IMG/VR virus record: IMGVR_UViG_3300045988_173544
Length of the DNA stretch: 64,000 nt
Direction: 5' to 3' (one strand)
Source: a virus
Shown here: positions 11,491 to 62,022 of the stretch, one piece after another
Numbering within the stretch: the first letter of the stretch is position 1
Layout: each line of letters opens with the position of its first letter
The notes under the pieces: generated by a model
Told to the model about the DNA's origin: nothing
What the model saw: only the letters and a program-made list of their open reading frames with translations
The model's database searches: none
Translations under genes and position numbers: made by a program

Positions 11491-11664
11491 TGTTCGTATC
11501 TCCTATATTGTTACTGCTTTAAAAAGTGTAACCAGTTCCGAACTACCAGCTCCTTGTGCTGTTTCTCTACCGTATCCTTTAGGTTGGGCGGTGAACTGGT
11601 TACATGATTATTATAACACATTAAAATAATTTTGTCAACTCTTTAAGGAGATATGTTACATTTC

Positions 11665-16573: not shown

Positions 16574-17179
16574 TTAACATTCCCCCGCTATTTTTCTCTT
16601 TAGAGAAGAGTTAGAAAATATTACTTCTCTAGCTTCTTCCCTGTCTTTATTTAACCCCTCATAAAAGGTATTTAATAAGGATTTCTTAAATAACTCTACT
16701 AAAGAATTAGCTAGCTCCTTATCATCAAGAATGAATGTTCCAGTAGGGAATGTAGCTTCTCCTAGCATATTCTTAACAGTAGCGGTTTTAGAAAACAGGT
16801 ATTTATAAAGCACATTACTGCTATCAGGAAATAAGCGTATATTAACCTCTACAAGCTCATTGTTATTAAAGAGAGGGTGTGTATGAGAAGGTGCATTCTC
16901 TCCGAAAAGTATTTCTAAACTTCCTTTAAGTTCAGTATTATAGTACATTCCAGAATAAGTTATTCTTATAACATTCTTATAATATCCATAAGGATTATAA
17001 GTATTATCTACCTTAGTTCCTTGTACAGTTCCGTTTATAAGTCTGACTGTATAAGCTGTATCACAAGATAATTCAGCTTCAAGAGAGTTATATACTTCTT
17101 CTGCTAATTTACTGATTTCATAAGGATTGCACCCATTCTTATCAGTTTTTAAAAATTCATTTCCATTACTGTCTTTCAT
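16574..17179 (-). CDS. hypothetical protein (201 aa)
   Basis: ORF; conserved UTR; promoter ~17265. Confidence 0.55.
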   Translation of the reverse strand: MKDSNGNEFLKTDKNGCNPYEISKLAEEVYNSLEAELSCDTAYTVRLINGTVQGTKVDNTYNPYGYYKNVIRITYSGMYYNTELKGSLEILFGENAPSHTHPLFNNNELVEVNIRLFPDSSNVLYKYLFSKTATVKNMLGEATFPTGTFILDDKELANSLVELFKKSLLNTFYEGLNKDREEAREVIFSNSSLKRKIAGEC

Positions 17180-17271
17180 AATGTTCGTATCTCCTATATT
17201 TATTGTGTTACTGCTTTCCTTAACTGCTTACATATTAATTATAACACAAGTTATTAAGTTTGTCAAGTGTT

Positions 17272-24960: not shown

Positions 24961-25338
24961 TGTCTTTCGTCCTTTCTGCCCTGTCGGGCTGTTTATCTAT
25001 CAACATACTTATTATATGTTAGAATTGCATGTTTGTCAACAAATTATTTTAAAAATCATTTTAAAAATCATACTTTAGTATTAGATTAAATTTTTAAGCG
25101 CATGGTAATGCGCTTAATTTTTCTTAATAAACCACTTGACAATTAATAAATATGTGATAAAATAGTATCGGGCATGAGAGCATGCCTTAATCATTCAATC
25201 AAAATACTTATAAATGATATTATGTTGTAACATTTACAGCCCTCTAGCAAGCCCATAAATCGATTTTTCTATATCAGATGATTAATCTATCCAACAGATA
25301 CAAAAAAGCCCCTTAACGGGGCTTCTATCAATCGGATT

Positions 25339-25793: not shown

Positions 25794-26312
25794 CTAGTTA
25801 TATTTCAATCTTTTTTCATGTGTGCTTAATGTTTTATCTAGCTTGCTTGTCTTATAGGAATTATTGAGTACCTCTTGCGGTATGATGTCAAGCCCTGCAA
25901 CTAGAGCTAACTTGTATTTACGGGCTAATTGCTTTATTAAGTATGCTTTATTAAGCGGTAGCCATTGCAAGCGGTCATTGATAACTTGATTAACGTCATA
26001 ATCGTAAGTGTGAGCCGTACCGCAATAAGTCGGTGTATGGCATGTAAAACTAGCATGTGTCATGGTACGTACTTTTAAAATATCCGTGCCATCTGATAAA
26101 ATTAAGATGTTGCAGCCGATAACAACGACTTTTAAGTGTTTATCTTTAATAAGCTGCTTTACAAGTGATTTACTTGTAAAATTGTTGTATGCTGCAACGA
26201 TGTCAAAACCGTTTGCGGTTAGTATGCCGGCATGTTTGTTGCGTAAGATGTCAAACCCTGCATTGCCGGTGTTGTAATCGCATACATTGTAAAGGTTTGT
26301 TAAGTTTTTCAT
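25794..26312 (-). CDS. hypothetical protein (172 aa)
   Basis: ORF. Confidence 0.5.
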   Translation of the reverse strand: MKNLTNLYNVCDYNTGNAGFDILRNKHAGILTANGFDIVAAYNNFTSKSLVKQLIKDKHLKVVVIGCNILILSDGTDILKVRTMTHASFTCHTPTYCGTAHTYDYDVNQVINDRLQWLPLNKAYLIKQLARKYKLALVAGLDIIPQEVLNNSYKTSKLDKTLSTHEKRLKYN

Positions 26313-26598
26313 TGTCGTATCTCCTTTTGCTTACAATACTATTTTAAACGATACAACATGAAAAGTCAAGCCCATGAGAGCATGTTTTTGTAACAAATTT
26401 TGTAAAGATTTTTGTAAAGATATTAAGGTAGGCATGGTTATATTTGAATAAGTAAAGGGCTGAAAACCAATGATAGAGGGTGTTTTAGATTAGAATATGT
26501 GCCCTCGCTAGACACCTCACAGAAATTTTCCACTTTCCCCAAAACTTCAATGGTCCCATAACCCTTACTACACCTGCATTTTAGCCCCACCTTATCTT

Positions 26599-26643
26599 CA
26601 TATACACACACATATACACACATATACACACATATACACACAT
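26599..26643. repeat. (catatacaca)n 10-bp microsatellite, about 4.5 units
   Basis: read directly. Confidence 0.85.
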
Positions 26644-26887
26644 CCTACCCCAACCTCATTTTCATATACTCCTCTTACACAGGTGTCTGCATATACATAT
26701 CTCCATGACCTCTAGTGACCCATACAGAGTTACTATTCTCACACATCCCACCTCAATATGACTCATACACATTCACAAGGGGGTACCCTAATCTCTCATA
26801 CCCTTATTTCTCAAAACCCTCAAAATTTTTTCCGGGAATTCTGAAAACTTTAATGGTCCCATAACCCTTACTATTCTTGTGTTATAG

Positions 26888-26968
26888 CTAAAATAGGTAA
26901 AATGCAAGAATACTTAACTCAACTATAAGTAACACAGCAAGCATTAATATTGCGTCAAATAAATTCAT
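26888..26968 (-). CDS. 26-aa hydrophobic peptide MNLFDAILMLAVLLIVELSILAFYLF
   Basis: tiny ORF with GGTAGGGAAG RBS; tandem paralog of the next; lies in a ~95-bp tandem duplication. Confidence 0.35.
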   Translation of the reverse strand: MNLFDAILMLAVLLIVELSILAFYLF

Positions 26969-26984
26969 CTTCCCTACCTTACTA

Positions 26985-27068
26985 TTATAGCGAGGATAGA
27001 TAAAAATACAAGAATAAGTAAAATACGGTTAACATTAACACAGTAAGCATTAACAACATATTATTCAT
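26985..27068 (-). CDS. 27-aa hydrophobic peptide MNNMLLMLTVLMLTVFYLFLYFYLSSL
   Basis: tiny ORF with GAGAAG RBS; membrane-helix-like; possible toxin or holin-like peptide. Confidence 0.35.
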   Translation of the reverse strand: MNNMLLMLTVLMLTVFYLFLYFYLSSL

Positions 27069-27099
27069 ATCTTCTCAATCGATAAACCTTTCTCTTTTA

Positions 27100-27335
27100 A
27101 GACAGAAACCGGAAGAGTTATTTAGGCTTCCCCCGGTTTCCTTATTAAATAAATGAGATTATGTTAGGCGTGCACTAGGTCTATTCCACCCTTGCTCTTA
27201 TATTAGAGAAGGGACTTGTAAACTACTAGACTAATCGCCCCGTAAGTTCGGGAGTGTATCCCCCTACCTTTACCTCTTAATATTTTATAAGGTCTGGTTA
27301 AGATTTACCTTATTTGTAGGATTGTTTATTTTACC
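27100..27335 (-). ncRNA. candidate tracrRNA-like ncRNA: own consensus promoter, ~170-nt 5' part, 15-nt anti-repeat (27151-27165) complementary to the CRISPR repeat, then hairpin 27105-27140
   Basis: promoter 27342..27370; no ORF; on the - strand aacataatctcattt is the exact reverse complement partner of the repeat core. Confidence 0.45.
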
Positions 27336-27341
27336 GTACTT

Positions 27342-27370
27342 ATTATAGCATAAACTTTTCTGTTTGTCAA
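27342..27370 (-). promoter_or_regulatory. consensus sigma70 promoter directly downstream of the TnpB-like gene
   Basis: TTGACA (27365-27370) 17 nt TATAAT (27342-27347). Confidence 0.7.
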
Positions 27371-27384
27371 CTATTTCATTCAAA

Positions 27385-28767
27385 TTATTTCTCTGCATAA
27401 TTCTTAAGGTTAATAGCAGCATTTTCATCCCTATCCATTACCATCCCGCACTTAGGGCACTTAAATACTTCATAACCTTTTTTCATCTCTTTATTCTTAT
27501 ATCCACAGTTACTACATATTTGTGAGCTTGCAAAGAACCTATCTGCTTTTATTACATTAACACCATTTCTTTCAGCTTTATACTTCAGCCAATCAAGCCA
27601 TGTACCCATACTTGTTTTCTGTATACCTTTAGCTACCTTCTTATTTTTCTTCATATTATTTATAGCAATATTTTCTACTACAATACTTTCAGGAGCTATT
27701 CTCTTTAATAAGTGAGCTACAGACTGCTTTCTATTATCTTCCTTAATATTCTCTATTTTTATCTGTGTACTTCTTAAATATCTTTCCAGTCTTCTTAACT
27801 TATTACTCTTTCTTAATCTCTTATTACCATAAGGAGTTTCTATATAATCATTATTAAGTCTTGCATGCAGCTGTAGTGTACTTATCTTTCTCTGTAATCT
27901 CTTACACTTTCTTTCATACTTTTTAACTTTCTCAGAAGTTGCAGGATTTAATACTTTAGTACCATCTGAAAGAGTTGCCAGTTTTCTACACCCTACATCT
28001 ACTCCCAATACTCCTTCTAAGTTTTGTAAGTTCAAATCATTATCTCTATATTCTGTTTTTACTGAAACAAAGAAATCTATACCATCTGTAGAAACTGTAA
28101 TATAATCTGCTAAAGTACCTTCTAATCTTCTATCCCAACCTTTTATCTTCATACCACCTTTTATTTTAGGAAGATATAACTTTCCATCTTTTATTCTTCC
28201 TACAGTAGTATAAGAACCTTTTGAAGACCATTTATGTGGTTTAGGAAATCCTTTAGCGTCAGCAGGGAATTTTAAGCTAGCTTCTTCCCCCTTCTTACTT
28301 CTCAGTTTTCTCTGCCTTTCATAGAAATCTGCTAAAATTTCTGAAGCACCATAATTACCTTTAGCGTCTTTCTTAAAATACTTCTCATTCCAAAACTTCT
28401 TATTAGCTGTATATAAAGCTCCTATAGAAGCCGGACTTACAACACAATCCAAAGCTTTTGCGTCACATTCTCTTAACCATGCATTTTCCGGAAGTTTCTT
28501 AAACTGTGTAAACTCCTTACTTATTCTTCCAAAATTCTTAATATTCTTTACTTTAGAGCTTGCTATATCATCAATATTTATATCATAATCTTCTTCATAT
28601 AATCCTTGCAATTCTCTACAGCCCCAATTATACGTAAATCTTGCAGCTGTAATATTTTTCTGCATTGCTGCTTTTTGCGCTTTATTTACGTGGATTTCTC
28701 TCTTAAACCCAATTTTACCTACACTCTCCTCTTTATCCTCTACAGGAGCTAACAACATTTCTTCCAT
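27385..28767 (-). CDS. tnpB: TnpB/Cas12f-like RuvC nuclease (IS605 OrfB family), ~460 aa
   Basis: RuvC-I GVDVG; C-terminal CSNCG...CPKCG zinc finger and RuvC-III DRDENAAINL; N-terminal FTYNWGCRELQ block; AGAGAGG RBS; dedicated promoter 28946..28974. Confidence 0.8.
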   Translation of the reverse strand: MEEMLLAPVEDKEESVGKIGFKREIHVNKAQKAAMQKNITAARFTYNWGCRELQGLYEEDYDINIDDIASSKVKNIKNFGRISKEFTQFKKLPENAWLRECDAKALDCVVSPASIGALYTANKKFWNEKYFKKDAKGNYGASEILADFYERQRKLRSKKGEEASLKFPADAKGFPKPHKWSSKGSYTTVGRIKDGKLYLPKIKGGMKIKGWDRRLEGTLADYITVSTDGIDFFVSVKTEYRDNDLNLQNLEGVLGVDVGCRKLATLSDGTKVLNPATSEKVKKYERKCKRLQRKISTLQLHARLNNDYIETPYGNKRLRKSNKLRRLERYLRSTQIKIENIKEDNRKQSVAHLLKRIAPESIVVENIAINNMKKNKKVAKGIQKTSMGTWLDWLKYKAERNGVNVIKADRFFASSQICSNCGYKNKEMKKGYEVFKCPKCGMVMDRDENAAINLKNYAEK

Positions 28768-28945
28768 ATTACCTCTCTTAATAATTTTCAGATGTAACAA
28801 AGGGAGAAGAGTCAGAGGTAAAAATTCTCCAAGGTAAAAATATTGTAAAAACCCTTAGAGAAGAAAAATAACATTTAACACATAATAAAGTCCCAACTCT
28901 TCCCCTGTGTTACACATCTAAAATCGTTCCTATCTTTATGTATCT

Positions 28946-28974
28946 ATTATAACATGAAATTGAGAGTTTGTCAA
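28946..28974 (-). promoter_or_regulatory. consensus sigma70 promoter for the TnpB-like gene
   Basis: TTGACA (28969-28974) 17 nt TATAAT (28946-28951). Confidence 0.7.
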
Positions 28975-34386: not shown

Positions 34387-34461
34387 TGGTTGCGGGGGAG
34401 GGAGTTGAACCCACTACTTCTGGGTTATGAGCCCAGTGTGCAACCGGTACACTTCCCCGCT
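34387..34461 (-). tRNA. tRNA-Met (CAT), initiator-like: GGG/CCC anticodon stem, CUCAUAA loop, mismatched 1:72, CCA encoded
   Basis: manual cloverleaf fold. Confidence 0.7.
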
Positions 34462-34466
34462 ATATA

Positions 34467-34811
34467 CTAATTTAAGAATTCTTTAAAATCATACGACTTG
34501 TACATTTTTCGTTTAGAAGGTCTTGTCGGAGCTTCGATAACTCGTAAATAGTTCTGCTGAACCTTATAACAATAAGATGAATAAAGTTTCGGATTATCGT
34601 TTTTAAAACGTGTTTGGTCAAAGTACGTTCTAGGTTGTGTAATGTGATGAACTCCGTAATTCCCTACGGTCACTACATCACCGGGTTTTATATGTTCTTT
34701 TAAACGCCCTTGCAGTTCTTCGATTTCCCTCTGTAAGATACGTTCCTGTTCTTTGAGGTTTACGTAATGTTGTATGTCAATCTCAAAAGCGGTGCGTTCT
34801 CTTTCGTCCAT
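34467..34811 (-). CDS. hypothetical protein (115 aa; start at MDERERT)
   Basis: ORF trimmed so it does not overlap tRNA-Ser. Confidence 0.5.
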   Translation of the reverse strand: MDERERTAFEIDIQHYVNLKEQERILQREIEELQGRLKEHIKPGDVVTVGNYGVHHITQPRTYFDQTRFKNDNPKLYSSYCYKVQQNYLRVIEAPTRPSKRKMYKSYDFKEFLN

Positions 34812-34822
34812 AATAACCTTCC

Positions 34823-34911
34823 TGGAGGAGAGCCTGAGAGTTGAACTCAAGACACATTGTGCCCGATGGGTTTAGCAAACCCTCCTAAGGACCGCCCTAG
34901 TGGTACTCTCC
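34823..34911 (-). tRNA. tRNA-Ser (GCT), class II, CCA encoded
   Basis: acceptor GGAGAGT/GCTCTCC, anticodon loop TTGCTAA, long variable arm, T-loop TTCAACT. Confidence 0.7.
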
Positions 34912-35227
34912 TTACAGAAAAGTATATCATAGTTTTTATAAAAAGTCAACTAACTTGGTAATATTTCCCTAGTTTCCTAGAGGTAGGTATTTACTGGGTT
35001 ACTTACGCTTGTCGAACTGCCCAACCTACGGTCCCATCGCTCTATGTGTTTTGTACAAGATTTTCACTTGGAGCCAACTGCATGCAGGGGTTCTTTTAAT
35101 TCACATACTACCGGCAATCGATAGAAGGGTATGACCTCCACGGGGTGACAAAATCCCGCTTTCTCATACTATGCAGACTATTACCAAGTCAGTTAACCAA
35201 TTCTTTAAATAGATTAGTTGACCTTAA

Positions 35228-35303
35228 TTGGAAGGTCGTGTGGGATTTGCACCCACGCATAATGGTTTTGCAGACCACCTCGTTAACTACTTCGACAACG
35301 ACC
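35228..35303 (-). tRNA. tRNA-Cys (GCA), U73 discriminator, CCA encoded, T-loop TGCAAAT (G55)
   Basis: perfect 7-bp acceptor AGGTCGT/ACGACCT; anticodon stem GTGGT/ACCAT. Confidence 0.65.
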
Positions 35304-35583
35304 TAAGAGTCTCAGCATATTCCCGATTTTCTTTTCTTAATCTCTCAATAGCTAACTTCTGTAATAACTCAGCTTGTTCTCGTCTTAGTTCTTGATATTC
35401 TTGACAAGTTGCTTTATCTGACGAAATACAAGTATAACTTGAGGTTGTACCCGAACCCGTCTTAAATAAGATGGGAACAATCATGATAAGTAGAAATATC
35501 AATGCTCCAATAGGGAGTAACCATATTAAATCTACGCAACTATAATTAGGTGATTTTGTTCCATCTTTATTATCAATACTCAT
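35287..35583 (-). CDS. hypothetical small membrane protein
   Basis: ORF; hydrophobic core. Confidence 0.45.
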   Translation of the reverse strand: MSIDNKDGTKSPNYSCVDLIWLLPIGALIFLLIMIVPILFKTGSGTTSSYTCISSDKATCQEYQELRREQAELLQKLAIERLRKENREYAETLRSLSK

Positions 35584-36134
35584 TGTACTACCTCCTTTAT
35601 ATCTCCCTTAAAATCACGAGTCCAATTTTCCCACGGAATGTGACCTTCGGGAATTCTTTGTTCGGGTAGGGAAGCTTCGTTTAATTTACCTAATACGTAT
35701 TTCTTGTTATGGTCAACAGCCCGACATTCACAATTCCCTTCGTATAATTCAAGGAATGATGTTATTTTTCCACATCTTGGGCAAGTGAATACTTCCCCTG
35801 TTACTGTTAATGCGCAGCACTCTAGTAAGAAATCATTTAAAGTTTCAGGATACTTAAATCCCTCGAAAGACACCACCCGCCCGTTTGATAACCTTCTAAG
35901 AATAGTTCCGTACTCGTATGATAAATAATCCTCTTTCGAAGGGCGTGTATAAAGTCCTAAATCATCCCTAGACTCCATAAGTTTCTTTTCCCAAGGAGTA
36001 TGAACTTTAGAAAAAATAGCGTCTATGAGGTTTCTCTCGGATTGATTAAATAGACTACGTCTTTGTTGTCTTAATGTAAATAACTTATGCTCTGTTAAGT
36101 CAATCCGAGGTTGATTTGGAACTTGAACTACCAT
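35580..36134 (-). CDS. hypothetical protein with CPRCG...CEC zinc motif
   Basis: ORF. Confidence 0.55.
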   Translation of the reverse strand: MVVQVPNQPRIDLTEHKLFTLRQQRRSLFNQSERNLIDAIFSKVHTPWEKKLMESRDDLGLYTRPSKEDYLSYEYGTILRRLSNGRVVSFEGFKYPETLNDFLLECCALTVTGEVFTCPRCGKITSFLELYEGNCECRAVDHNKKYVLGKLNEASLPEQRIPEGHIPWENWTRDFKGDIKEVVQ

Positions 36135-36143
36135 TACACCCTC

Positions 36144-36917
36144 CTATATGAAAGGTTTTGCTATAGCAGTTCGCACATTTTTAATGAAACTTTTAAAGAA
36201 CCCTTGTTTCCTCGGTTTCAAAACATACTTGCTTTTCTCATCTTCAATAAGATTATTGATATATGTTCGTACTTCCTCTTCTGTTGCTTGCGGGAGTGAT
36301 ACTTCTTTTGCTACATCATCTTTACCCATTTGACCAAGTTCTTGTACAAGTTTTGTCAGAGTTAAGTCGCAGAATTCATCTTCCCAGTCAGCGATGAAAT
36401 AAAATCTGTCGTGAATATTCCAGATATTATTAGTCTTTTCTTCAAAAGCTCCAAAAACTATAGGGTCTCGCTGTCTTTCTTCTACTGCAATCTGTCGTTC
36501 TGTTTCTCCAGTATAATCAGTAAATACAACATAGAACTGGTCGAAGATTTTTAAAGACTTAAGTTCAGAAATTTTTTGAACTACTTCATCTGGAATTATT
36601 CTAGGGTATTTAGATAATTCAATAATTTTAACAACTCTACCCTTAACATTGTTCAAGTAAAAAGTAATATCTTCAGATAGGACATAAGTTGAAATCCCGT
36701 GTTTAAGAAGTTCTCTTTCTTTGGTTATAACACCATAAGTGAATGCAAGTCTTTGTACAACTGCATTTTGACCTACTGCCATAGCCTTAGTTAACTCCTT
36801 CATAATAATATTCTTGAAGGAAGTAAGAAAATCGTCAGACATGTCTAACTTATGCTCTTTAACGAAGTTAAAATATTCTTGAGGGCTTAATTCCTGCTTA
36901 ATGTTCTCATTGTCCAT
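36144..36917 (-). CDS. hypothetical protein (257 aa)
   Basis: ORF; promoter ~36965. Confidence 0.55.
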   Translation of the reverse strand: MDNENIKQELSPQEYFNFVKEHKLDMSDDFLTSFKNIIMKELTKAMAVGQNAVVQRLAFTYGVITKERELLKHGISTYVLSEDITFYLNNVKGRVVKIIELSKYPRIIPDEVVQKISELKSLKIFDQFYVVFTDYTGETERQIAVEERQRDPIVFGAFEEKTNNIWNIHDRFYFIADWEDEFCDLTLTKLVQELGQMGKDDVAKEVSLPQATEEEVRTYINNLIEDEKSKYVLKPRKQGFFKSFIKNVRTAIAKPFI

Positions 36918-37066
36918 GCTTGTTCTCCTTTATGAGAGAATTATATCACAAGAAAGGCAATTTGTCAACTTTTATGTAATAATGGTCTGGATAGCCGGCT
37001 CCGCCCCGGCGACAGAGGTCCCCAAAGCCCCTATGTTACTAAGCTACACTATATCCAGATAATTAA

Positions 37067-37158
37067 TGGAGGAGAGAGTGGGATTTGAACCCACGGAGGC
37101 TTTTAGACCCCGACAGTTTTCAAGACTGCTCCAATAAGCCAGGCTCTGGCACCTCTCC
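37067..37158 (-). tRNA. tRNA-Ser (TGA), class II, CCA encoded
   Basis: manual fold. Confidence 0.75.
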
Positions 37159-37165
37159 ATAAAAA

Positions 37166-37239
37166 TTCCCCCGCTACGACTCGAACGTAGGAAATATCGG
37201 AACCAAAATCCGACGCCTTACCAGCTTGGCTACAGGGGA
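37166..37239 (-). tRNA. tRNA-Gln (TTG), U1:A72
   Basis: manual fold. Confidence 0.7.
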
Positions 37240-37248
37240 GTATAAAAA

Positions 37249-37320
37249 TACCCGGTGCTGGATTTGAACCAACGACCTCCACTTTGTAAGAGTGGCATTC
37301 TACCGCTGAATTAACCGGGC
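37249..37320 (-). tRNA. tRNA-Val (TAC)
   Basis: manual fold. Confidence 0.7.
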
Positions 37321-37325
37321 TTGAA

Positions 37326-37400
37326 TGGAGCGAGTAGAGGGAGTCGAACCCTCGCCGTCTGTTTGGAAGACAGAAATCATAACCGTTAGACCACACTCGC
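37326..37400 (-). tRNA. tRNA-Gly (TCC), CCA encoded
   Basis: manual fold; anticodon loop CTTCCAA. Confidence 0.75.
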
Positions 37401-37405
37401 AAAAT

Positions 37406-37479
37406 CACCCTCGGCAGGACTCAAACCTGCGACGTGAGACTTAGAAGGTCCCTGTTCTATTCATCTGAACTACGAGGGT
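37406..37479 (-). tRNA. tRNA-Arg (TCT), A1:U72
   Basis: manual fold. Confidence 0.65.
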
Positions 37480-37484
37480 TTATT

Positions 37485-37557
37485 AGCCCCCTAGAGGATT
37501 TGAACCCCTGACATCCACGTCCGTAGCGTGGTGTTCTTTCCGCTGAACTAAGGAGGC
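37485..37557 (-). tRNA. tRNA-Arg (ACG)
   Basis: manual fold. Confidence 0.7.
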
Positions 37558-37755
37558 TTAGTCTGAGTAATCCCTTAACTGTTCTAAAAGAACACGTTTA
37601 CCATCAGGTTTTATAAGTACGCAACCTTGAATAGGTTTGTAATTACAAGCATACCCCAGTGCGTCTGCCTTAGCATGGCATTCCCAATTACTCATAAATA
37701 CGCCAAGTCCTAAAACCAAGAGGACTGTTATTACAATCAAATTAAACTCTGCCAT
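37558..37755 (-). CDS. small membrane protein (65 aa)
   Basis: ORF with TM helix. Confidence 0.45.
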   Translation of the reverse strand: MAEFNLIVITVLLVLGLGVFMSNWECHAKADALGYACNYKPIQGCVLIKPDGKRVLLEQLRDYSD

Positions 37756-37763
37756 AATTTACC

Positions 37764-38057
37764 TCATTTATCTTCCTGAGGTGGAAATATCCAATCGTAC
37801 ACTGTATTAACTATTTTTAAAGGTAGAAATAAGAACCCTAAAATTAGTGCAAAAGGCTGCGCAAAATTTAAGAATTCTTCCGGACTCATTCCAGTGAGTA
37901 AATAAACTTCGTGGAATAAATCCTCGTTTTTCTCTACATATTCATCTATGTTGTTGAGCTTCCTTTTCAGAAGACACCAACAAATAATCCCTGAAATTAT
38001 GTAATAGTATAGAAAATACATTAACTGAGTTCCCACAGTAGATAATTCAATACCCAT
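37764..38057 (-). CDS. small membrane protein (97 aa, 2 TM)
   Basis: ORF; promoter ~38085. Confidence 0.5.
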   Translation of the reverse strand: MGIELSTVGTQLMYFLYYYIISGIICWCLLKRKLNNIDEYVEKNEDLFHEVYLLTGMSPEEFLNFAQPFALILGFLFLPLKIVNTVYDWIFPPQEDK

Positions 38058-38106
38058 AGCTCTATGTTAGCATATTTTTGAAGATTTGTCAACTTTTTAG
38101 AAATAA

Positions 38107-38182
38107 TGCCCAAGACTGGAGTCGAACCAGCAAATGTCGCAGGGTCTAAACCTACCGCCTTTACCAATTTGGCAACTCGGGC
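38107..38182 (-). tRNA. tRNA with anticodon TAG (decodes CUA, Leu) but a class-I-like 7-nt variable region
   Basis: manual fold; canonical acceptor, D and T arms. Confidence 0.55.
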
Positions 38183-38188
38183 TTTTAT

Positions 38189-38273
38189 TAGGCATGACTG
38201 GAGTCGAACCAGCATTGTTTCTAATGTGATGGATTTTAAGTCCATTGCGTTTCACCAATTTCGCCACATGCCC
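38189..38273 (-). tRNA. tRNA-Leu (TAA), class II
   Basis: manual fold; long variable arm. Confidence 0.75.
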
Positions 38274-38461
38274 TTAAATATCATACAATAGGATTACTTG
38301 AGTACCTATATCTCTCTTCCCAGGTATATGTGCTTACCTAGGGTAGTTTTAAGAGTGTTTTCTTCTGCCCATACTGAAATCTTACCAACTACAAATCTAT
38401 TTTCCAGTAGCAACGGATATTTATGCAGACAAGTTATTCGTTAAACTATGTATGATAATGG

Positions 38462-38534
38462 TGAGTGCAGAAAGGTTTGAACTTTCACCTTGTATCTTAA
38501 AAGGATACTGCTCTACCAATTGAGCTATACACTC
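38462..38534 (-). tRNA. tRNA-Lys (TTT)
   Basis: manual fold. Confidence 0.7.
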
Positions 38535-38541
38535 ATTTTAA

Positions 38542-38618
38542 TGGTGGCTCCGGTTAGATTTGAACTAACGACGCTAGCCTCTTCAGGGCTACGCTCTACC
38601 CGACTGAGCTACAGAGCC
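38542..38618 (-). tRNA. tRNA-Phe (GAA), CCA encoded
   Basis: manual fold. Confidence 0.75.
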
Positions 38619-38939
38619 TCATAGACAACTTTTACAAGCATTTCCACCGCCGTGTTTCACGCACTCCGCATACGCATTTTGTTTTAAAATATCTTTAAAA
38701 CGGTCATAATCTTTATAACAATCATTACGATTACTGTAATAAAGACGTGAAATATCAGTACCGTATAACCTAATAAACATAGGGTCAAAAACCCCGGAAT
38801 TACCGCAATAACAAGCTGCCCCAACAATATTAGAAGTTTTAACAACTGTTATACCATCGTCATGTGCTTCAAATATAGTACTTTGCGCTAATACAGGGAC
38901 TGTATATAAAAATAACATAAGTATTAAAAATTTCTTCAT
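38619..38939 (-). CDS. secreted Cys-rich protein with signal peptide (106 aa)
   Basis: ORF; MKKFLILMLFLYTVPVLA signal-like N-terminus. Confidence 0.5.
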   Translation of the reverse strand: MKKFLILMLFLYTVPVLAQSTIFEAHDDGITVVKTSNIVGAACYCGNSGVFDPMFIRLYGTDISRLYYSNRNDCYKDYDRFKDILKQNAYAECVKHGGGNACKSCL

Positions 38940-38959
38940 TATGTAATCCTCTTTAAATA

Positions 38960-39031
38960 CGCAGGTTGCATGAATTGAACATGCGACTCGTAGTTTTGGA
39001 GACTAGAATTTTACCGCTAAACTAAACCTGC
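38960..39031 (-). tRNA. tRNA-Trp (CCA), with a C:C mismatch at 27:43
   Basis: manual fold; perfect acceptor GCAGGTT/AACCTGC and T-stem GCATG/CATGC. Confidence 0.55.
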
Positions 39032-39270
39032 ATGTTATTCTTTAATCTAGGACACCAATCCGGTATCGGTAGTTCTTTGTAAGTTAAAGCAGACCTTAAA
39101 ATTGGGTATCCCCAGTTTGTCTTAACTCCAGACTCTTTGAACTTTTGTACTTCTTCCTTTGAATACTGTTTGTAGTAGCAACAATATTTTGGTCTCCCCT
39201 GGAGCATGCCATTGTGTCTGCAATATTCACAATCATTACAATCTGTAATCTCTATAATAATTTTGTTCAT
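39022..39270 (-). CDS. Cys-rich small protein (start MNKIII)
   Basis: ORF trimmed to internal Met. Confidence 0.4.
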   Translation of the reverse strand: MNKIIIEITDCNDCEYCRHNGMLQGRPKYCCYYKQYSKEEVQKFKESGVKTNWGYPILRSALTYKELPIPDWCPRLKNNMQV

Positions 39271-39285
39271 TGTCTTCCTTGTCCT

Positions 39286-39362
39286 TGGGGTGACGGGAGG
39301 GGTTTGAACCCTCAACCGCCGGAACCACAATCCGGAGCTCTAGCCAATTGAGCTACCGCCAC
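39286..39362 (-). tRNA. tRNA-His (GTG), C73, CCA encoded, no G-1 encoded
   Basis: manual fold. Confidence 0.7.
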
Positions 39363-39394
39363 AGCTTTTATATAACCTTAGTGTAAATCCACAT

Positions 39395-39553
39395 CAGGTT
39401 ATGCGTTGTGTCCTTTAACTTCCTTAGGTTCAAAACTTCTTAACCAATATAAGTCCCCATCAGTAGGGATTTTCTCAGGCATTCCAAGTTCAATACCTAA
39501 AACTTTTTCCGGTTTCTCAGATATTTGGTCTTCTATAATAACTGTATTTGTCA
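39395..39553 (-). CDS. tiny ORF (~52 aa) with its own consensus promoter at ~39575-39605
   Basis: below the ORF-track size cutoff; promoter TTGACA-17-TATAAT. Confidence 0.35.
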
Positions 39554-39608
39554 TATACTTCATTACCCTGTAATTAATTATAACATATTATTATATATTT
39601 GTCAACTT

Positions 39609-39812
39609 TTAGAAAGTACATGTTGCTATCACTAATAGAAATGATATGATTGCAAGCACAAGCATAACTGTTTTAAATGCTTCGTATATTTTCCTCTTTA
39701 AAGTACATTTACACATTTCCTGAGGGCAAATACTCCAGTAATAGCATTGTTCGCACTTATGGGTAAAATTAAGCTCACAACGTTCAATCATTTTTATTAT
39801 CTCCAGAACCAA
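39609..39812 (-). CDS. small Cys-rich membrane protein (67 aa)
   Basis: ORF; C-terminal TM. Confidence 0.45.
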   Translation of the reverse strand: MVLEIIKMIERCELNFTHKCEQCYYWSICPQEMCKCTLKRKIYEAFKTVMLVLAIISFLLVIATCTF

Positions 39813-40038
39813 TAGAGTTACACATATACCCTACAGAACTCCTTGGGTAAATTTCACTATTTATCTTCTGCAATACTTCTTCCGGAAAATAAGAGCCTTT
39901 AAAATCTCCGCCAAAGAAGTATTTTACGTAATATCTAATTCCAGCTCTATCAATATCCATAGAGTCTACATATCCCTTAATATTTAATTCCTCTATAAAT
40001 ACCCTATCGCCTATGTCATATTTAGTATTCAGTTTCAT
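39784..40038 (-). CDS. hypothetical protein (84 aa)
   Basis: ORF. Confidence 0.45.
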   Translation of the reverse strand: MKLNTKYDIGDRVFIEELNIKGYVDSMDIDRAGIRYYVKYFFGGDFKGSYFPEEVLQKINSEIYPRSSVGYMCNSIGSGDNKND

Positions 40039-40284
40039 ATTATGTATCCTTTGTTTAAGAAATAATGGAGGGAGTTTTTTAATTGCCTTGCAGGAACCAC
40101 CTGCTACGTGCCCTCCTCACGCCGTCGAACGCCGACGGTATGTGCCTTTCGTGAGTCAGTATGCCGACTACCTTTCGTACTCTCGGATACGGAGGAATTT
40201 CTACTGCCGTCTGGTTATGTTTATTTGTTCGGGAGGTCGAAACCAGAGTAAAGGACCTCACCTGCTTTTGTGCAAGGTCTCCAA

Positions 40285-40374
40285 TGGTGGGTAAGGAAGG
40301 AGTTGCACCTCCAACGGCTTGTTAGGCAACGCTTTTACAGAGCGGTCCGACCAACTGGTATTCGGCTCTTACCC
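40285..40374 (-). tRNA. tRNA-Tyr (GTA), class II, CCA encoded, T-loop TGCAACT (G55)
   Basis: perfect acceptor GGGTAAG/CTTACCC; anticodon loop CTGTAAA. Confidence 0.65.
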
Positions 40375-40398
40375 ATAGCACCGGAAAATGCTGAAAAA

Positions 40399-40474
40399 TG
40401 GTGGAACTCGTAGGACTTGCACCCACACCCTAGGACTTATGAGGTCCCCGCTCCGCTGTTTGAGCTAGAGTTCC
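40399..40474 (-). tRNA. tRNA-Met (CAT) elongator-type, CCA encoded, T-loop TGCAAGT (G55)
   Basis: perfect acceptor GGAACTC/GAGTTCC. Confidence 0.65.
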
Positions 40475-40913
40475 AGAGTACGAGTATTTTACAACCCCTC
40501 GTCTAACTGGGCGGCGCTGGTTGATATTTTAATCTCCTTCATACAATGTTCGGGCATTGTATCGAAACTCAGTTTCCCGAAAAACTAAGCCTACGCAGAA
40601 CACGGTTTACACCGAAATGGCACATCTTTAAGGTATTGCCGAGTCGAACGGCTACCTACGTGGCTCCTAACCGTAGTTAGGCGTGGCTGTGAGCGAGTTA
40701 TGAGCCCACTCTGTGCACCGTTGCACTTTCACTTAAAGACAGGTTATATTACGGTTCTTTCACCCCGCTGTCGAATAACACTCAACGACCTGCTATATTA
40801 AAACCCCTAGCAGTGGGTATGCACCAGTATATTAACCCCTACTGGCGGGTTCCTCGGAATGAGGGTTCTTTCACTACAAGAACATTGTAGTATCGCATGG
40901 GATTGGCTACAAT

Positions 40914-40985
40914 TAGGAACGGAAGGACTCGCACCTTCAACCTCTGAATTATCGGTTCAGTGCTCTACTTTTAAGCTACGCTCCT
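40914..40985 (-). tRNA. tRNA-Ile (GAT), T-loop TGCGAGT (G55)
   Basis: manual fold. Confidence 0.6.
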
Positions 40986-41181
40986 ATAGCTGGTTAGGTG
41001 TACTTTTCGTCGAACGTCGACTTTTTTCTCGATTTTTCACCTCTTCCTCAGGAGACCAGTGACCCCTGTGTATACCGCTGTTTTTCACCTACTCTTCTAC
41101 CAGATATTATAGAAGTTTCTCTTATCCCTCAAAAAGTTATCTGCTCTCTTCCTGAGTTTAGGTATACCTCTAGTAGTTTAT

Positions 41182-41255
41182 TGGGAAGGGATGGACTTGA
41201 ACCATCTACCTTGGAGGTATGAGCTCCATGTTCTGACCAGTTGAACTACCTGCCC
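41182..41255 (-). tRNA. tRNA-Met or tRNA-Ile2 (CAT)
   Basis: manual fold; T-stem GATGG/CCATC. Confidence 0.65.
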
Positions 41256-41259
41256 ATAA

Positions 41260-41334
41260 TGGCTCCAGGAGCAGGGCTCGAACCTGCAACCTACCGGTTA
41301 ACAGCCGGGCGTTCCGCCATTGAACTATCCTGGA
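41260..41334 (-). tRNA. tRNA-Asn (GTT), CCA encoded
   Basis: manual fold. Confidence 0.7.
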
Positions 41335-41506
41335 ATATGACCCCGGTGTATCGTCCCGGAGATACGCATTCTTTCCAGCTAAGGAAACTGAAACCTTTTC
41401 CAAAACCCCGCCTATAGGAATGAAACAGACGCTTGTTATTAGAGCTCATAAACAAGAGGGACTGCAATAAAATTGCTTGGTACACCTGAGTTACACATCT
41501 TAAAAC

Positions 41507-41577
41507 TGCCTCCAGAGGGACTTGAACCCCCAAAGCGGGTTTACAAAACCCGTGTTTTACCATTGAACTATAGAGGC
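41507..41577 (-). tRNA. tRNA-Thr (TGT)
   Basis: manual fold. Confidence 0.7.
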
Positions 41578-41757
41578 AAGCGAGTATAACAGAATATGCG
41601 CAATAACTGTTATACCCTAGGTTCTTATTTCGGAATATACCTTAAAACAACCGGGGCAACGCTTTCATCTCATATAAGAGCGTAGGCTACATAAGCTCTT
41701 TCTTCCTTGTCACCTAGCGGAAATAGCCGATACTAGGTCTTAGTTACCCTAATTAAG

Positions 41758-41833
41758 TGGTGGAGACTAAGGGAATTGAACCCTTCCAGTCTGCTTGCAA
41801 AGCAGTCTCGCCAGCCTTGGTACATGAGTCCCC
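41758..41833 (-). tRNA. tRNA-Ala (TGC) with G3:U70 and CCA, but a non-canonical D-arm
   Basis: acceptor GGGGACT/AGTCTCC; anticodon hairpin CTGC-TTTGCAA-GCAG. Confidence 0.5.
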
Positions 41834-42822
41834 AAATTGGGAGCAGGTGCTTTATGTTTAAGTGTTAAACGTCAGAGCTGCTCCAGACAAACATCACTAC
41901 CTTCCTTATATCCCGCTCAATTGGCGTGGCGGTGTGTTCCTAGAGTCTTGTATAGCGCTATTCAACTCTAGCGAACACTGGTTATCCAAGATAACACCGG
42001 GTTTAAAATAAGGGAACCTGCCGAGTCGAACGGCTTACTTCCACGAATATTTAGTTAACGTAGTAGATATTATACTAATACTTAAGTGTCGTGGTAAGGT
42101 AGCGCTACTATAATCAGCAACCCTTTTCATTATTATTTACAAGAGCTCTTATAAATAACAACTAGCTGAAGGTTCCTATAATTAATCTGTTAAACAGGAG
42201 TTAACGGAATTGGACCGTCAATTCCTGTTTTATACTGACTCCGTCGTCAGCCTTCATTTAATATTATCTTCGCCCTTATAAGTCTTTTTATCTGTATTCA
42301 TGATACCTACTTAAATGGCGGTGGGTACGAAGCTCGAATTTGTTTCCTAGGAGTGACAGTCCTAAGTTTTAACCGCATAAACTAACCCACCTTATAAAAT
42401 GGCAGTTCGGGGTGCCAGCCCGCCATCCCGTCGGATGACTGGTACTTGTATCATCTCGGTATACAAGTCAACCGCTGTAACGTTTTCGACCATACAACAC
42501 ATGCTGGTTAAGGTTGTGTGGATTGTCAGGAAGTTGTAAACCAGCAAACTTCCTCCAAGTTACAGTCTGTTTTGAAACTTTGTAATGGTACCCCAGCACG
42601 GTAACGCTCCGAGTGCTCCGCTGTGAAAGAGCGGTGACTTAACTTTCTGTCCCCTGGGGCAAATATGAAACTGTCAACGTGCAATAGACAACACAATTAC
42701 ATCTATGTAATTATTACCATTGTCTGTTGTTTATCAACAGTTCCATTATATCATGGATTACATAATTTGTCAACTAATCTATTCAATTGTCAAAGTGCAA
42801 TTTTGTTCTTTTACAGAACTGA

Positions 42823-42870
42823 AACACCGCTTGTTTCTTCTATTTTCTGAGTAACAAGCGGTGTTTTAAA
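42823..42870. terminator. bidirectional rho-independent terminator (13-bp stem aacaccgcttgtt / aacaagcggtgtt plus T-run)
   Basis: perfect inverted repeat followed by TTTTAAAAAA. Confidence 0.65.
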
Positions 42871-43202
42871 AAACTTCGTAAATTAATAACTTTAAGTTAA
42901 TTAACTCTTGTTACTCCCACCAGTATTATCGTCTATAATCGCATTAAAGGACGGCAACCAGCGATAACCTTGTTCCATACAAGGTTTTACTGATGTAGTT
43001 CTTTCACTATGCAGTTTTGAATACTGATTGAGTAACATTATATCACCTTTTTATGTTTCACTGTAATAATATAACCATATAATAACATGAGTTAAAATAT
43101 TTGTCAACTGTTACCGAAAATTTTATTAAGAAATGTTAACAGGACTTTCTCATGAATAACTAAATTATATCTTGGAAGGTAAAAAAGGAATGAGAGGTAA
43201 TA

Positions 43203-43625
43203 TTGGAAATAAAGTCGGTCTCAGAAAGTGCAGTATCTTTTGGGTCATACCAGAACATACTGAAAACTCTTTATAAGAAGGGCAAAATGCCTCAAGTAAA
43301 GAGAGGTTTGTACGGGGATATTCTTACTAAAGACAACGTATCTTTGGAACATTTAAAGCCCCACAGCGAAGGAGGAAAAACAATCTTATCCAACTTAGCC
43401 CTTGCGTCTAAGCAGAAAAATAACGCAAGGGGAGCGAAGCCGCTAAGCGAAGTGTTGAATTGGGAAATGGTTAATGACTATTTATCTCAATTCAATTTTC
43501 GTATTAAGGGATTTAACGGTGAAGCTTATGCTGAAATGATTAAGAAGACTGTTGAGGAACTCGGAGTTATAAATCCGAAGGAATTGGCTAAGAAAGGTAA
43601 GAAGCATTTAGATAAAATAGTCTAG
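43203..43625 (+). CDS. HNH endonuclease (free-standing, homing-type) in the tRNA island
   Basis: SLEHLKPHSEGGKT...N...N..RG HNH motif; + strand. Confidence 0.6.
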   Translation: MEIKSVSESAVSFGSYQNILKTLYKKGKMPQVKRGLYGDILTKDNVSLEHLKPHSEGGKTILSNLALASKQKNNARGAKPLSEVLNWEMVNDYLSQFNFRIKGFNGEAYAEMIKKTVEELGVINPKELAKKGKKHLDKIV

Positions 43626-43642
43626 TCATTGCGACTAGACTA
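43618..43642. terminator. bidirectional hairpin tagtctagtc-attgc-gactagacta between HNH (+) and tmRNA (-)
   Basis: perfect 10-bp stem. Confidence 0.5.
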
Positions 43643-43651
43643 TTCTGTAAA

Positions 43652-44044
43652 TGGTGGAGGTGCGGATAATCGAAATCCGGTCCTATCCGTCCTTACAACA
43701 ACTGTTGTACAAGTTTCCTTTGGTTCATCTTTTCTGTCAAGTAAAAGGAGATTGTCAAACAAAGGTTACAAGAGTTCTCCATTGACACCGTTTGCTTTTT
43801 ACTCGTTACGTGAGCGTCTGGAACGATACAGATTACTTTACGGGACTCACCGATGGCTGTGCCTGACCTATTGTAGATTACAGCTTAGTCTACGGGTCAC
43901 TTCTTAGGCAGCGATTGCTGTTCTGTAGCCGAAGTCAGCTTTGATTACGTTGTTAGCGTTTATCTTTTTGTACGATTTAAAGAGTTCATACGTCTCTACT
44001 TGCAATTGAAGCCAGGTTGCAGACAGTCAAAACCTGTCACCCCC
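43652..44044 (-). ncRNA. ssrA: tmRNA (ssrA), ~393 nt; tag reading frame 43904-43957 encodes ANNVIKADFGYRTAIAA-stop
   Basis: 5' GGGGGTG pairs with 3' CACCTCC (G3:U70) followed by ACCA; 3' domain GGAC-CGGAT-TTCGATT-ATCCG matches the tRNA-like domain of tmRNA; the internal tag ORF ends ...AIAA then TAA. Confidence 0.7.
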
Positions 44045-61404: not shown

Positions 61405-62022
61405 TTAAGTTGTTCTGTTCTTTCTGTTGACGTCCATCAACTGACGAGCCTTCTTCAATAAAGATTTGTTTATGATAGGCGGGGTCATTCTCTCGTAACG
61501 GTAGTCATGTAAAACATCACGCACGTGAGAGAAGTTTGTTTTCAATACATCTGCCACCTTGTGCACAGACCTGTATTGAGTGTAATATTTGAAGATTTTA
61601 CGAACCATCGGAGCTTCTACAGGGTCAATAACTATTTCTCCAGCGTCATTTAGTTTATATCCGTGAGGGATACCTCCAGCTCTTTCGTCAGCTAACTCTT
61701 GAGCTTTGTCTAATATAGCATTAACCTTGTCAATAATTTCCGAAATATTGTTGTAAATCATCGAAATGAAGTCGTCTAAGGATTTAGCGTTGTACACAAG
61801 AAAGTGATAACCTTTATTTGTGTAATATTCTTTTGCCATCGCATTTGCTTCAGTATTAACAATGAGATATATTTTAGCGTCAGATTTTACCTGAAATTTA
61901 TAAATATATCCTCCCAATCCAGGGACATTTTTAAAATACCCCTTAGCAAATTTTTTGTAGGAGTCGGCTTTTCTTAATCCAGATAAATCTTTTGCGAGTG
62001 TTTTACTGACTGTTGATGGCAT
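61405..62022 (-). CDS. hypothetical protein with a region resembling the recombinase domain of large serine recombinases (GYKLNDAGEIVIDPVEAPMVRKIF)
   Basis: weak motif similarity only. Confidence 0.4.
   Translation of the reverse strand: MPSTVSKTLAKDLSGLRKADSYKKFAKGYFKNVPGLGGYIYKFQVKSDAKIYLIVNTEANAMAKEYYTNKGYHFLVYNAKSLDDFISMIYNNISEIIDKVNAILDKAQELADERAGGIPHGYKLNDAGEIVIDPVEAPMVRKIFKYYTQYRSVHKVADVLKTNFSHVRDVLHDYRYERMTPPIINKSLLKKARQLMDVNRKNRTT

Follow-up and report, generated by a model that had tools for sequence, protein, structure and literature searches.

Does a miniature nuclease encoded by a large phage take its guides from a CRISPR array that lies 22 kb away on the same genome? The question is raised by IMG/VR record IMGVR_UViG_3300045988_173544, from which we analyzed a stretch of 64,000 nucleotides (hereafter the window) that is apparently part of a large phage. 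A first reading of its letters and open reading frames (ORFs), the original prediction, had proposed that a TnpB/Cas12f-like nuclease gene, a noncoding RNA (ncRNA) encoded just downstream of it and the remote array form one minimal system, capable of interference and devoid of adaptation genes. Our follow-up bears out this core claim at the level of sequence comparison: arrays are linked to the nuclease gene in its relatives, anti-repeat and repeat co-vary across systems, and a syntenic relative carries its array next to the gene. Our preferred reading, to which we assign a probability of roughly 0.78, is that the phage encodes an interference-only type V system that depends on a tracrRNA (trans-activating CRISPR RNA) and belongs to the grade of TranC (transposon-CRISPR intermediate), with an effector of TnpB size and shape and an unlinked array. 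That the nuclease, the tracr-like RNA and the remote array make up a single system we consider likely.

Predicted pairing between the ncRNA and the array repeats

The putative tracr-like RNA (27098-27335, minus strand; ~235 nt) holds no credible ORF and sits at the omegaRNA position. It would be transcribed from a promoter (27342-27370, minus strand) that begins 14 nt past the nuclease stop codon, has a TG-extended -10 element and matches the sigma-70 consensus at 12/12 positions; the RNA ends are placed from this promoter and from the 3' hairpin. The predicted second promoter and ORF-less RNA of ~230 nt are thereby recovered. A similar promoter occupies the same place in L002, L003, L014, L009 and L095 (these numbers designate the loci compared in this work), and the ncRNA is conserved in L002, a 98% relative. 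Its predicted fold has a minimum free energy of -60.6 kcal/mol (z = -2.4), and none of 200 shuffled sequences was equally stable.

Toward its 3' end, the ncRNA carries a 16-nt anti-repeat (27151-27166, minus strand) that can pair with the minus-strand repeat over its positions 17-32; next come 10 nt and then a GC-rich, terminator-like hairpin of 13 bp with a weak U tract (27105-27140, minus strand). Both the 15-mer singled out by the original prediction, AACATAATCTCATTT at 27165-27151 (minus strand), and the GC hairpin at 27140-27105 are indeed present. The prediction that this RNA forms a perfect 15-bp duplex with every repeat holds for only three of the seven, the A-variants, which contain the exact 15-mer and form 15 Watson-Crick pairs with the anti-repeat. 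The other four read ...CATCT and form 13 Watson-Crick pairs that G:U wobbles extend to 16 contiguous pairs, as the prediction had allowed for.

The match exceeds what chance would give. A Watson-Crick run of the observed length between ncRNA and repeat was reached by 0/2000 ncRNA shuffles, and zero matches to the 20-nt 3' half of the repeat are expected in the window at up to three mismatches. Co-folding, one of the checks suggested at the outset, gave the ncRNA a gain of -14.4 kcal/mol with the minus-strand repeat and of -2.2 kcal/mol with the plus-strand repeat.

Because large loops make duplex-folding statistics noisy, we relied instead on contiguous-run counts and a swap control, measuring the longest complementary run of each ncRNA/repeat pair in four systems, with 2000 shuffles each. 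The window's own pair has a run of 13 Watson-Crick pairs, or 16 with G:U (reached by 0/2000 shuffles), and that of L095 a run of 17, or 18 with G:U (0/2000). The corresponding values are 12 and 12 for L009 (1/2000) and 10 and 11 for L003 (12/2000). When ncRNAs and repeats were swapped between systems, runs were mostly 6-8; the exception, the L003 ncRNA with the window repeat, arises because both repeats contain GATACTT. No notable run was found in the antisense orientation in this four-system test. L095 has a co-fold ddG of -19.6, next to the -14.4 of the window, and the window, L009 and L095 share a layout consisting of a structured 5' body, the anti-repeat, ~10 nt and a stable hairpin. Co-variation of this kind is the signature of a tracrRNA, here putatively encoded where TnpB genes encode their omegaRNA.

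Rfam contained no family match to the ncRNA or the repeat, and the family ncRNAs were too divergent in a MAFFT alignment for a covariance model. A transposon end was not definable at the locus, where the predicted ncRNA ends in the anti-repeat, its 10-nt linker and the hairpin.

A nuclease family linked to CRISPR arrays

A profile built from the window nuclease and its nearest homologues bounds the family sharply, with members scoring at least 388 bits and the next match 251. The nuclease is thereby set apart from ordinary TnpBs; a grouping with ordinary IS605 TnpB was among the outcomes that the original prediction had named as counting against it. An exhaustive scan of 1.84 billion representatives yielded a family of ~25 clusters of 434-540 aa, and the eight members included in a neighbor-joining tree form one clade.

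An array lies beside the gene in all family loci with enough flanking sequence (L003/L004/L007, L009, L012, L095, L097 and L109), and L110 has one repeat at its end. In L003/L004/L007 (protein P0004, 36% identity) the nuclease gene is followed by a promoter, an ncRNA of ~200 nt and the array. L009 (P0006) has a 15-repeat array, then the nuclease gene, one degenerate repeat, a promoter and the ncRNA, while the order in L095 (P0122) is nuclease, array, promoter and ncRNA. L012, L097 and L109, which lie at contig ends, have the nuclease gene and then the array. The repeats of these different systems align when each is taken in the orientation of its nuclease gene, and so does the minus-strand repeat of the window, which is identical to that of L003 at ~22/36 positions as counted by eye.

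The window, L003 and L009 also share an upstream neighborhood in which AdoMet_dc and Band_7 are accompanied by a Zn-ribbon ORF of 91 aa and by a number of small ORFs. To keep such a place across a divergence to 32-36% identity is unlike a mobile insertion sequence (IS). The nuclease gene is single-copy in the window, and no TnpA-like Pfam family was found among 50 window ORFs. On these three grounds, we rejected a mobile IS200/IS605 or IS607 element.

Some family members have lost RuvC residues, namely P0122 (L095, 10001-12262), P0170 (L109), P0181, P0182, P0186, P0187, P0190 and P0192. P0122 carries D257N/E365K/D447G; its array is degenerate, and its tracr:repeat pairing, of 17-18 bp, is the strongest observed. 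Arrays are kept by two of these proteins, P0122 and P0170, which suggests that such members could be phage-encoded, nuclease-dead RNA-guided binders.

A separate IMG/VR clade of phage TnpBs of ~380 aa (428 aa in L026) comprises L015, L016, L017, L018, L024 and L026, with adjacent arrays throughout except in L016, which is truncated at a contig end. The L026 repeat resembles a clostridial I-B repeat and that of L015 ends in ATTGAAAC. We found no convincing anti-repeat in this clade (9-12 nt) and therefore did not use it as support.

The effector is TnpB-like in sequence and predicted fold

The nuclease ORF (27385-28767, minus strand) encodes 460 aa from its ATG. As had been predicted, the gene has its own consensus promoter (28946-28974, minus strand), TTGACA-17-TATAAT with a TG-extended -10 element and 12/12 sigma-70 positions. 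The 5' untranslated region (28768-28939, minus strand; ~170 nt) may fold into a long-range stem, 28918-28895 pairing with 28812-28790 over 22-23 bp around ~80 nt; such a stem is absent from the L003 homologue, whose leader is short.

The protein matches the Pfam families Cas12f1-like_TNB (zinc ribbon; 8e-22) and HTH_OrfB_IS605, and retains both the RuvC triad D257/E365/D447 and the four cysteines of the CxxC...CxxC zinc finger. The sole NCBIfam model that it passes is guided_TnpB (NF040570, "RNA-guided endonuclease TnpB family"), at 171 bits (cut-off 100). It falls short of the cut-off for the specific models IS200_TnpB (165 bits, cut-off 425), IS607_TnpB (136 bits, cut-off 350) and CRISPR_Cas12f2 (58 bits, cut-off 450). 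Ranked by sequence against the PDB, ISDra2 TnpB (1e-24), an AI-designed TnpB-like nuclease and ISFba1 TnpB come before LaTranC (2e-14), and the Cas12f chains trail far behind (E-values of 7e-4 to 1e-2). The PADLOC Cas12f and Cas12u4 models match at ~1e-33, which we attribute to shared TnpB ancestry, that is, to generic TnpB-like similarity.

An AlphaFold (AF2) model of the nuclease (predicted local distance difference test, pLDDT, 84.8; predicted template modeling score, pTM, 0.80) was compared with PDB structures. Its best folds by target template modeling (TM) score are ISFba1 TnpB (0.82) and ISDra2 TnpB (0.77-0.79), with weaker matches to LaTranC (~0.6), Cas12f (~0.5) and CasLambda (~0.3-0.48). 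As modeled, the effector is of TnpB size and fold and is not an expanded Cas12. We rejected a Cas12f or V-F identity on the 58/450 bits, the weak PDB E-values and a TM of ~0.5, which is below that of TnpB and TranC. The protein had initially been called a "460-aa TnpB/Cas12f-like RuvC nuclease"; the TnpB part of this description is upheld by the ORF, Pfam and guided_TnpB, and the Cas12f-like part is contradicted by NCBIfam, the PDB ranking and the fold.

Orientation and turnover of the remote array

The array (49809-50225, minus strand) consists of seven 36-bp repeats, which read GTTAGAAGATACTTAGAGATGAGATTATGTTGTAAC in the sense of the CRISPR RNA (crRNA), and six spacers, five of 29-30 nt and one of 18 nt. 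Its leader end, at 50225, lies 12 nt past the stop codon of ORF 50238-50696. At the other end, a degenerate terminal repeat (49809-49844, minus strand), containing ..ACTGGGAAATG.. and also present in L103 and L104, is followed by a further decayed repeat (49761-49796, minus strand; 24/36) that is also present in L103. In the window, L103 and L104 alike, this degenerate end adjoins a 348-aa gene. Degenerate repeats at the 49.8-kb end mark the trailer and fit minus-strand transcription. Together with the co-directional arrays of the relatives and an anti-repeat complementarity confined to the minus strand, they favor the minus-strand reading on which the original prediction depended.

L103 (3918-5459) and L104 (3481-5022) carry 24 repeats and 23 spacers at the site of the window's remote array. 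They come from strains of different samples, their flanking proteins are 98% identical to those of the window, and 1 of 23 spacers is shared with it. The array looks active, with a content that turns over between strains, and the long array at the same remote site means that the split layout is stable in this lineage. L106, which shares its scaffold with L004, has at the position of the window's array a mere 40-nt gap between a 141-aa and a 350-aa ORF, and the L003-type phage carries its array directly after the ncRNA instead. These comparisons point to an array that moved within the lineage rather than to a chance appearance.

No array with the 18-nt repeat segment was found in 185,579 GTDB species genomes or in JGI metagenomes, which held single chance matches only, and a search of IMG/VR with a 21-mer of the repeat likewise revealed no array.

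Pfam and PADLOC searches found no other Cas effector near the array. Among the candidates for a second effector that we rejected, a 728-aa ORF is a RecD2-type helicase, and ORFs of 893 and 956 aa have no Cas matches. The helicase (51011-53197, minus strand), two small ORFs upstream of the array, matches PADLOC "typeIV_RecD" (9e-63); since it is also present in L106 without an array after it, its link to the array is probably incidental. The ORF upstream of the array had no identical protein in an exact look-up. Within the 64-kb window, the predicted absence of cas1 and cas2 holds: 0/50 ORFs of at least 120 aa matched a Cas adaptation family in Pfam or PADLOC.

Candidate solitary repeat units and the array of L003

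A candidate solitary repeat unit lies at 25136-25262 on the plus strand. It comprises a TG-extended promoter (25136-25163; 11/12), a degenerate repeat 33 nt downstream (25196-25231; 27/36 overall and 18/20 in the 3' 20 nt) and a spacer-like stretch (25232-25262) without another match within the window. The repeat could form 14/15 pairs with the anti-repeat (ddG -11.4), and we regard 25196-25262 as a candidate solitary guide unit. L009 has one degenerate repeat (11498-11533; 27/36) in the interval from the nuclease stop codon to the tracr promoter and, 5.7 kb downstream, a lone repeat-like unit (~17178-17214) that abuts a promoter. A further 24/36 repeat match in the window, at 400-435 inside ORF 273-857, has both ends matching (GTTAGA...GTTGTAAC); it barely exceeds the shuffle background and may be due to chance.

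In L003 (11369-11947), the 5' arm of the ncRNA 3' hairpin resembles the 3' arm of the repeat, and two adjacent spacers of the array differ by 1 mismatch. Duplication seems to have built this array, and the guide architecture looks unlike that of the window.

Phage setting and neighboring genes

Relatives of the window are found on contigs of 175-230 kb, and some phage contigs of the nuclease family exceed 200 kb. Nearly all genes of the window lie on the minus strand. Most of its proteins have no Pfam match: apart from the nuclease, the families found among 50 ORFs are limited to a helicase, a CCA-adding enzyme, a leucine-rich repeat protein, AdoMet_dc and Band_7. Among the PHROGs matches are those to a helicase and a tRNA nucleotidyltransferase, as well as weak ones to virion or tail-fiber entries. 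A comparison of 20 kb of the window with GenBank phages found no match at the DNA level.

Between the nuclease locus and the array lie 20 tRNA genes and a transfer-messenger RNA (tmRNA) gene (34390-44044, minus strand). The tmRNA is full-length (43652-44044, minus strand; 95.5 bits), and a gene for the CCA-adding enzyme is found at 45066-46490. A 257-aa ORF (36144-36917, minus strand) without a Pfam match corresponds to PHROG 10081, "transposase" (1.6e-59); it lies 7 kb from the nuclease gene and is syntenic in L002 and L003. Another ORF, of 205 aa (61405-62022, minus strand), has weak DNA invertase and integrase PHROG matches (~4e-9). Beyond the tracr hairpin, the stretch at 26330-27090 (minus strand) holds two tandem hydrophobic ORFs of 26-27 aa (26985-27068 and 26888-26968), together with a (CACATATACA)n microsatellite (26599-26640) and a direct repeat of 45 nt (at 26541 and 26844); L003 has its array at the position of this stretch.

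Discussion

How would these parts work together? On the preferred reading of a single tracrRNA-dependent system, the nuclease would be expressed from its own promoter, and the promoter abutting its stop codon would yield a structured RNA of ~235 nt at the omegaRNA position, ending in the 16-nt anti-repeat, a short linker and a hairpin in place of a guide. The array 22 kb away would be transcribed on the minus strand, probably as a 3' extension of the upstream operon. Repeat positions 17-32 would pair with the anti-repeat, leaving UAAC before the spacer. From the geometry of omegaRNA, we infer that this duplex would rebuild the last omegaRNA stem in trans and place the downstream spacer as the guide. 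The RuvC site (D257/E365/D447) would then cut the matching DNA of rival phages or of other mobile elements, a role favored by spacers that are diverse, fast-changing and non-self. Transcription, RNA ends, processing, the location of the guide 3' of the repeat, DNA cleavage, the protospacer adjacent motif and the type of target are all features that we infer.

Several observations weigh against this reading. The L003 repeat folds on itself (12-bp hairpin, -14.3 kcal/mol) and co-folds without preference for tracr pairing, so that tracr dependence may not be family-wide. RuvC residues are lost in 8/26 family representatives, with the zinc finger kept, and cleavage is accordingly not a constant of the family. 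A terminator scan did not call the 3' hairpin of the ncRNA, which has no clear U tract. We found no good promoter between ORF 50238-50696 and the leader repeat, and the precursor of the crRNAs would then probably arise by read-through of the upstream operon. Spacers turn over although no cas1 or cas2 is visible. Finally, the database search of spacers suggested with the original prediction found no protospacers: neither the 43 spacers of the window and relatives nor the 23 of L103 had one in GenBank phages, 28 spacers (window, solitary unit and L103) did not match PLSDB plasmids, and two spacer cores did not match IMG/VR. Nor did any spacer (28 from the window and L103/L104, ~35 from relatives) have a protospacer in the loci compared here.

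The sole signal above noise comes from the spacer W_sp3, which agrees at 23/30 positions with the start of the window's own ORF 25794-26312 and its ribosome-binding site, as though it derived from that gene in a related phage. It hints weakly that a related phage may be the target. The other window spacers had no match above noise to the phage's own 64 kb.

Could the association be coincidental? Phage arrays without cas genes are common, and the one in the window might be an orphan mini-array served by a host Cas effector, with the nuclease an ordinary IS200/IS605-type TnpB that has its own omegaRNA and the shared 15-mer an accident. The 22 kb between array and nuclease would fit this explanation, as would a nuclease that passes the generic TnpB model only and, in the wider set of loci, the host type I/III-like motifs in the repeats of L026 (clostridial I-B-like) and L015 (ending in ATTGAAAC). 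We nevertheless consider it very unlikely. An array is linked to the nuclease in every family member with enough flank and adjoins it in the syntenic relative, anti-repeats and repeats co-vary in four systems, and the single-copy gene, without a TnpA in its vicinity, stays in place at 32-36% identity. At its predicted 3' end the ncRNA has an anti-repeat and a hairpin instead of a guide, and the 18-nt repeat segment was not found as an array in GTDB, JGI metagenomes or IMG/VR.

It is also conceivable that the parts do cooperate, as an RNA-guided DNA binder or regulator in the manner of TldR, Cas12m or Cas12c rather than as a DNA-cutting system of defense or competition. Solitary repeat units serve regulation in other CRISPR systems, and the window has a promoter-driven one, while the unit in L009 abuts a promoter; the RuvC losses with a retained zinc finger, and the arrays kept by P0122 and P0170, point the same way. 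The window nuclease keeps its D-E-D triad, however, and its diverse spacers, which vary from strain to strain and find no above-noise match in the phage's own 64 kb, fit the targeting of foreign DNA better than self-regulation, so that we hold a regulatory role to be improbable. That the system is instead a decaying remnant, its array split off by rearrangement and out of use, might be read from the window's short array, with variant repeats, no promoter of its own and six spacers, one of them truncated to 18 nt, against 23 in the sister strains. Yet the array that these strains hold at this remote site is long and regular, the anti-repeat still matches the repeats (perfectly for the A-variants), and the nuclease ORF and both promoters are intact, all of which makes decay very unlikely.

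A tracrRNA-dependent system of this kind has a close counterpart in TranC (Jin et al., Cell 2025;188:6283), in which omegaRNA is split into tracrRNA and crRNA. In the accounts given in PMC13565253 and bioRxiv 10.64898/2026.03.27.714800, this "functional RNA splitting" places the tracrRNA at the omegaRNA site, also called the reRNA site, and the crRNA repeat pairs with the 3' region of the tracrRNA; double-stranded DNA is cleaved under guidance by crRNA:tracrRNA and also with reRNA, and one TranC, CauTranC9, is phage-borne. As described there, TranC resembles the window system in its effector of TnpB size and fold, its array without adaptation genes and its tracrRNA at the omegaRNA position. 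By sequence, the window has the TnpB size and fold, the family-wide association with arrays and the anti-repeat-bearing tracr-like RNA at the omegaRNA position that characterize TranC, and its array, though remote, is homologous to the family arrays in repeat sequence and orientation. "TranC", or a V-U group, is the literature name for a CRISPR-associated effector of the TnpB grade such as this one. The window differs in that its array is 22 kb from effector and tracr and that it has an extra solitary repeat unit. Its protein is far from LaTranC (9jfo/9jfq; E-value 2e-14, TM ~0.6), the sole TranC in the PDB and the one on which our comparison rests, and nearer to ISDra2 and ISFba1 TnpB.

Compared with the TnpBs of IS200/IS605 (ISDra2 and ISFba1; PDB 8exa, 8h1j and 8iaz), which are its best matches in sequence and fold, the window protein shares the D-E-D triad and C4 zinc finger and is 50-75 aa longer; in both, the ncRNA begins at the 3' end of the gene. 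The window gene, unlike theirs, has no transposon context: it shows synteny across phages at an identity of 32-36%, occurs as a single copy and lacks a TnpA. Its ncRNA, as predicted, would end in an anti-repeat with a hairpin in place of a flank-derived guide, the guides coming from the array. With Cas12f (V-F) and Cas12n (V-U4) the system shares a miniature, tracr-dependent design, an anti-repeat near the tracr 3' end and the usual lack of adaptation genes, but the protein falls below the Cas12f2 cut-off, with weak PDB E-values and a TM of ~0.5 to Cas12f.

CasPhi (Cas12j) and CasLambda of large phages have 700-800 aa and are tracr-independent. They resemble the window system, as does Cas12r of Thermus Lalka phages, in being phage-carried TnpB-derived nucleases that have a short array, lack cas1/cas2 in their vicinity and have been proposed to act in conflicts between mobile elements. 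Cas12r has 564 aa, is tracr-independent and is encoded next to its array, and its role against competing phages or other mobile elements has been shown experimentally (bioRxiv 10.64898/2026.04.20.719267). The window system differs from it by its tracr-like RNA, its 460-aa effector and its remote array. CRISPR arrays have captured TnpB on ~50 occasions, in most cases with no adaptation genes (PMC10691335). With such captures, the TranC split and working phage TnpB-like effectors already published, this kind of system is known, and because two family members come from JGI data, the family itself may already be catalogued. Particular to the present case, as far as the sequences suggest, are the 22-kb separation of the array, the solitary unit, the mobility of the array within one lineage, the spacer turnover without adaptation genes in view and the nuclease-dead members that keep arrays.

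A more far-reaching possibility, which we regard as unlikely, is that the lineage renews its spacers without a Cas1/Cas2 of its own and that the family displays several stages in the emergence of CRISPR from a transposon RNA. These stages would include repeats paired with a tracr (window, L009 and L095) and a self-folding repeat next to an omegaRNA-like RNA with its own terminal hairpin (L003). They would further include arrays upstream, downstream or 22 kb away, promoter-driven solitary repeats, and nuclease-dead members with arrays. If spacers were indeed gained by a non-Cas1 route, such as recombination or duplication of repeat-guide units, this would be a new mechanism of adaptation.

Our findings indicate that a miniature type V effector can have its array tens of kilobases away; pipelines based on 10-kb windows (PMC10691335) would call such an effector a plain TnpB. 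As a compact, putatively tracr-guided family of 460-aa size with intact catalytic residues and mapped guide parts, it should be useful in the search for small genome editors. The family also offers natural material on the passage from omegaRNA to tracrRNA and crRNA, and on how arrays gain spacers without adaptation genes. For the phage itself, the predicted system would be a further case of a large phage with its own RNA-guided weapon, probably directed against rival mobile elements.

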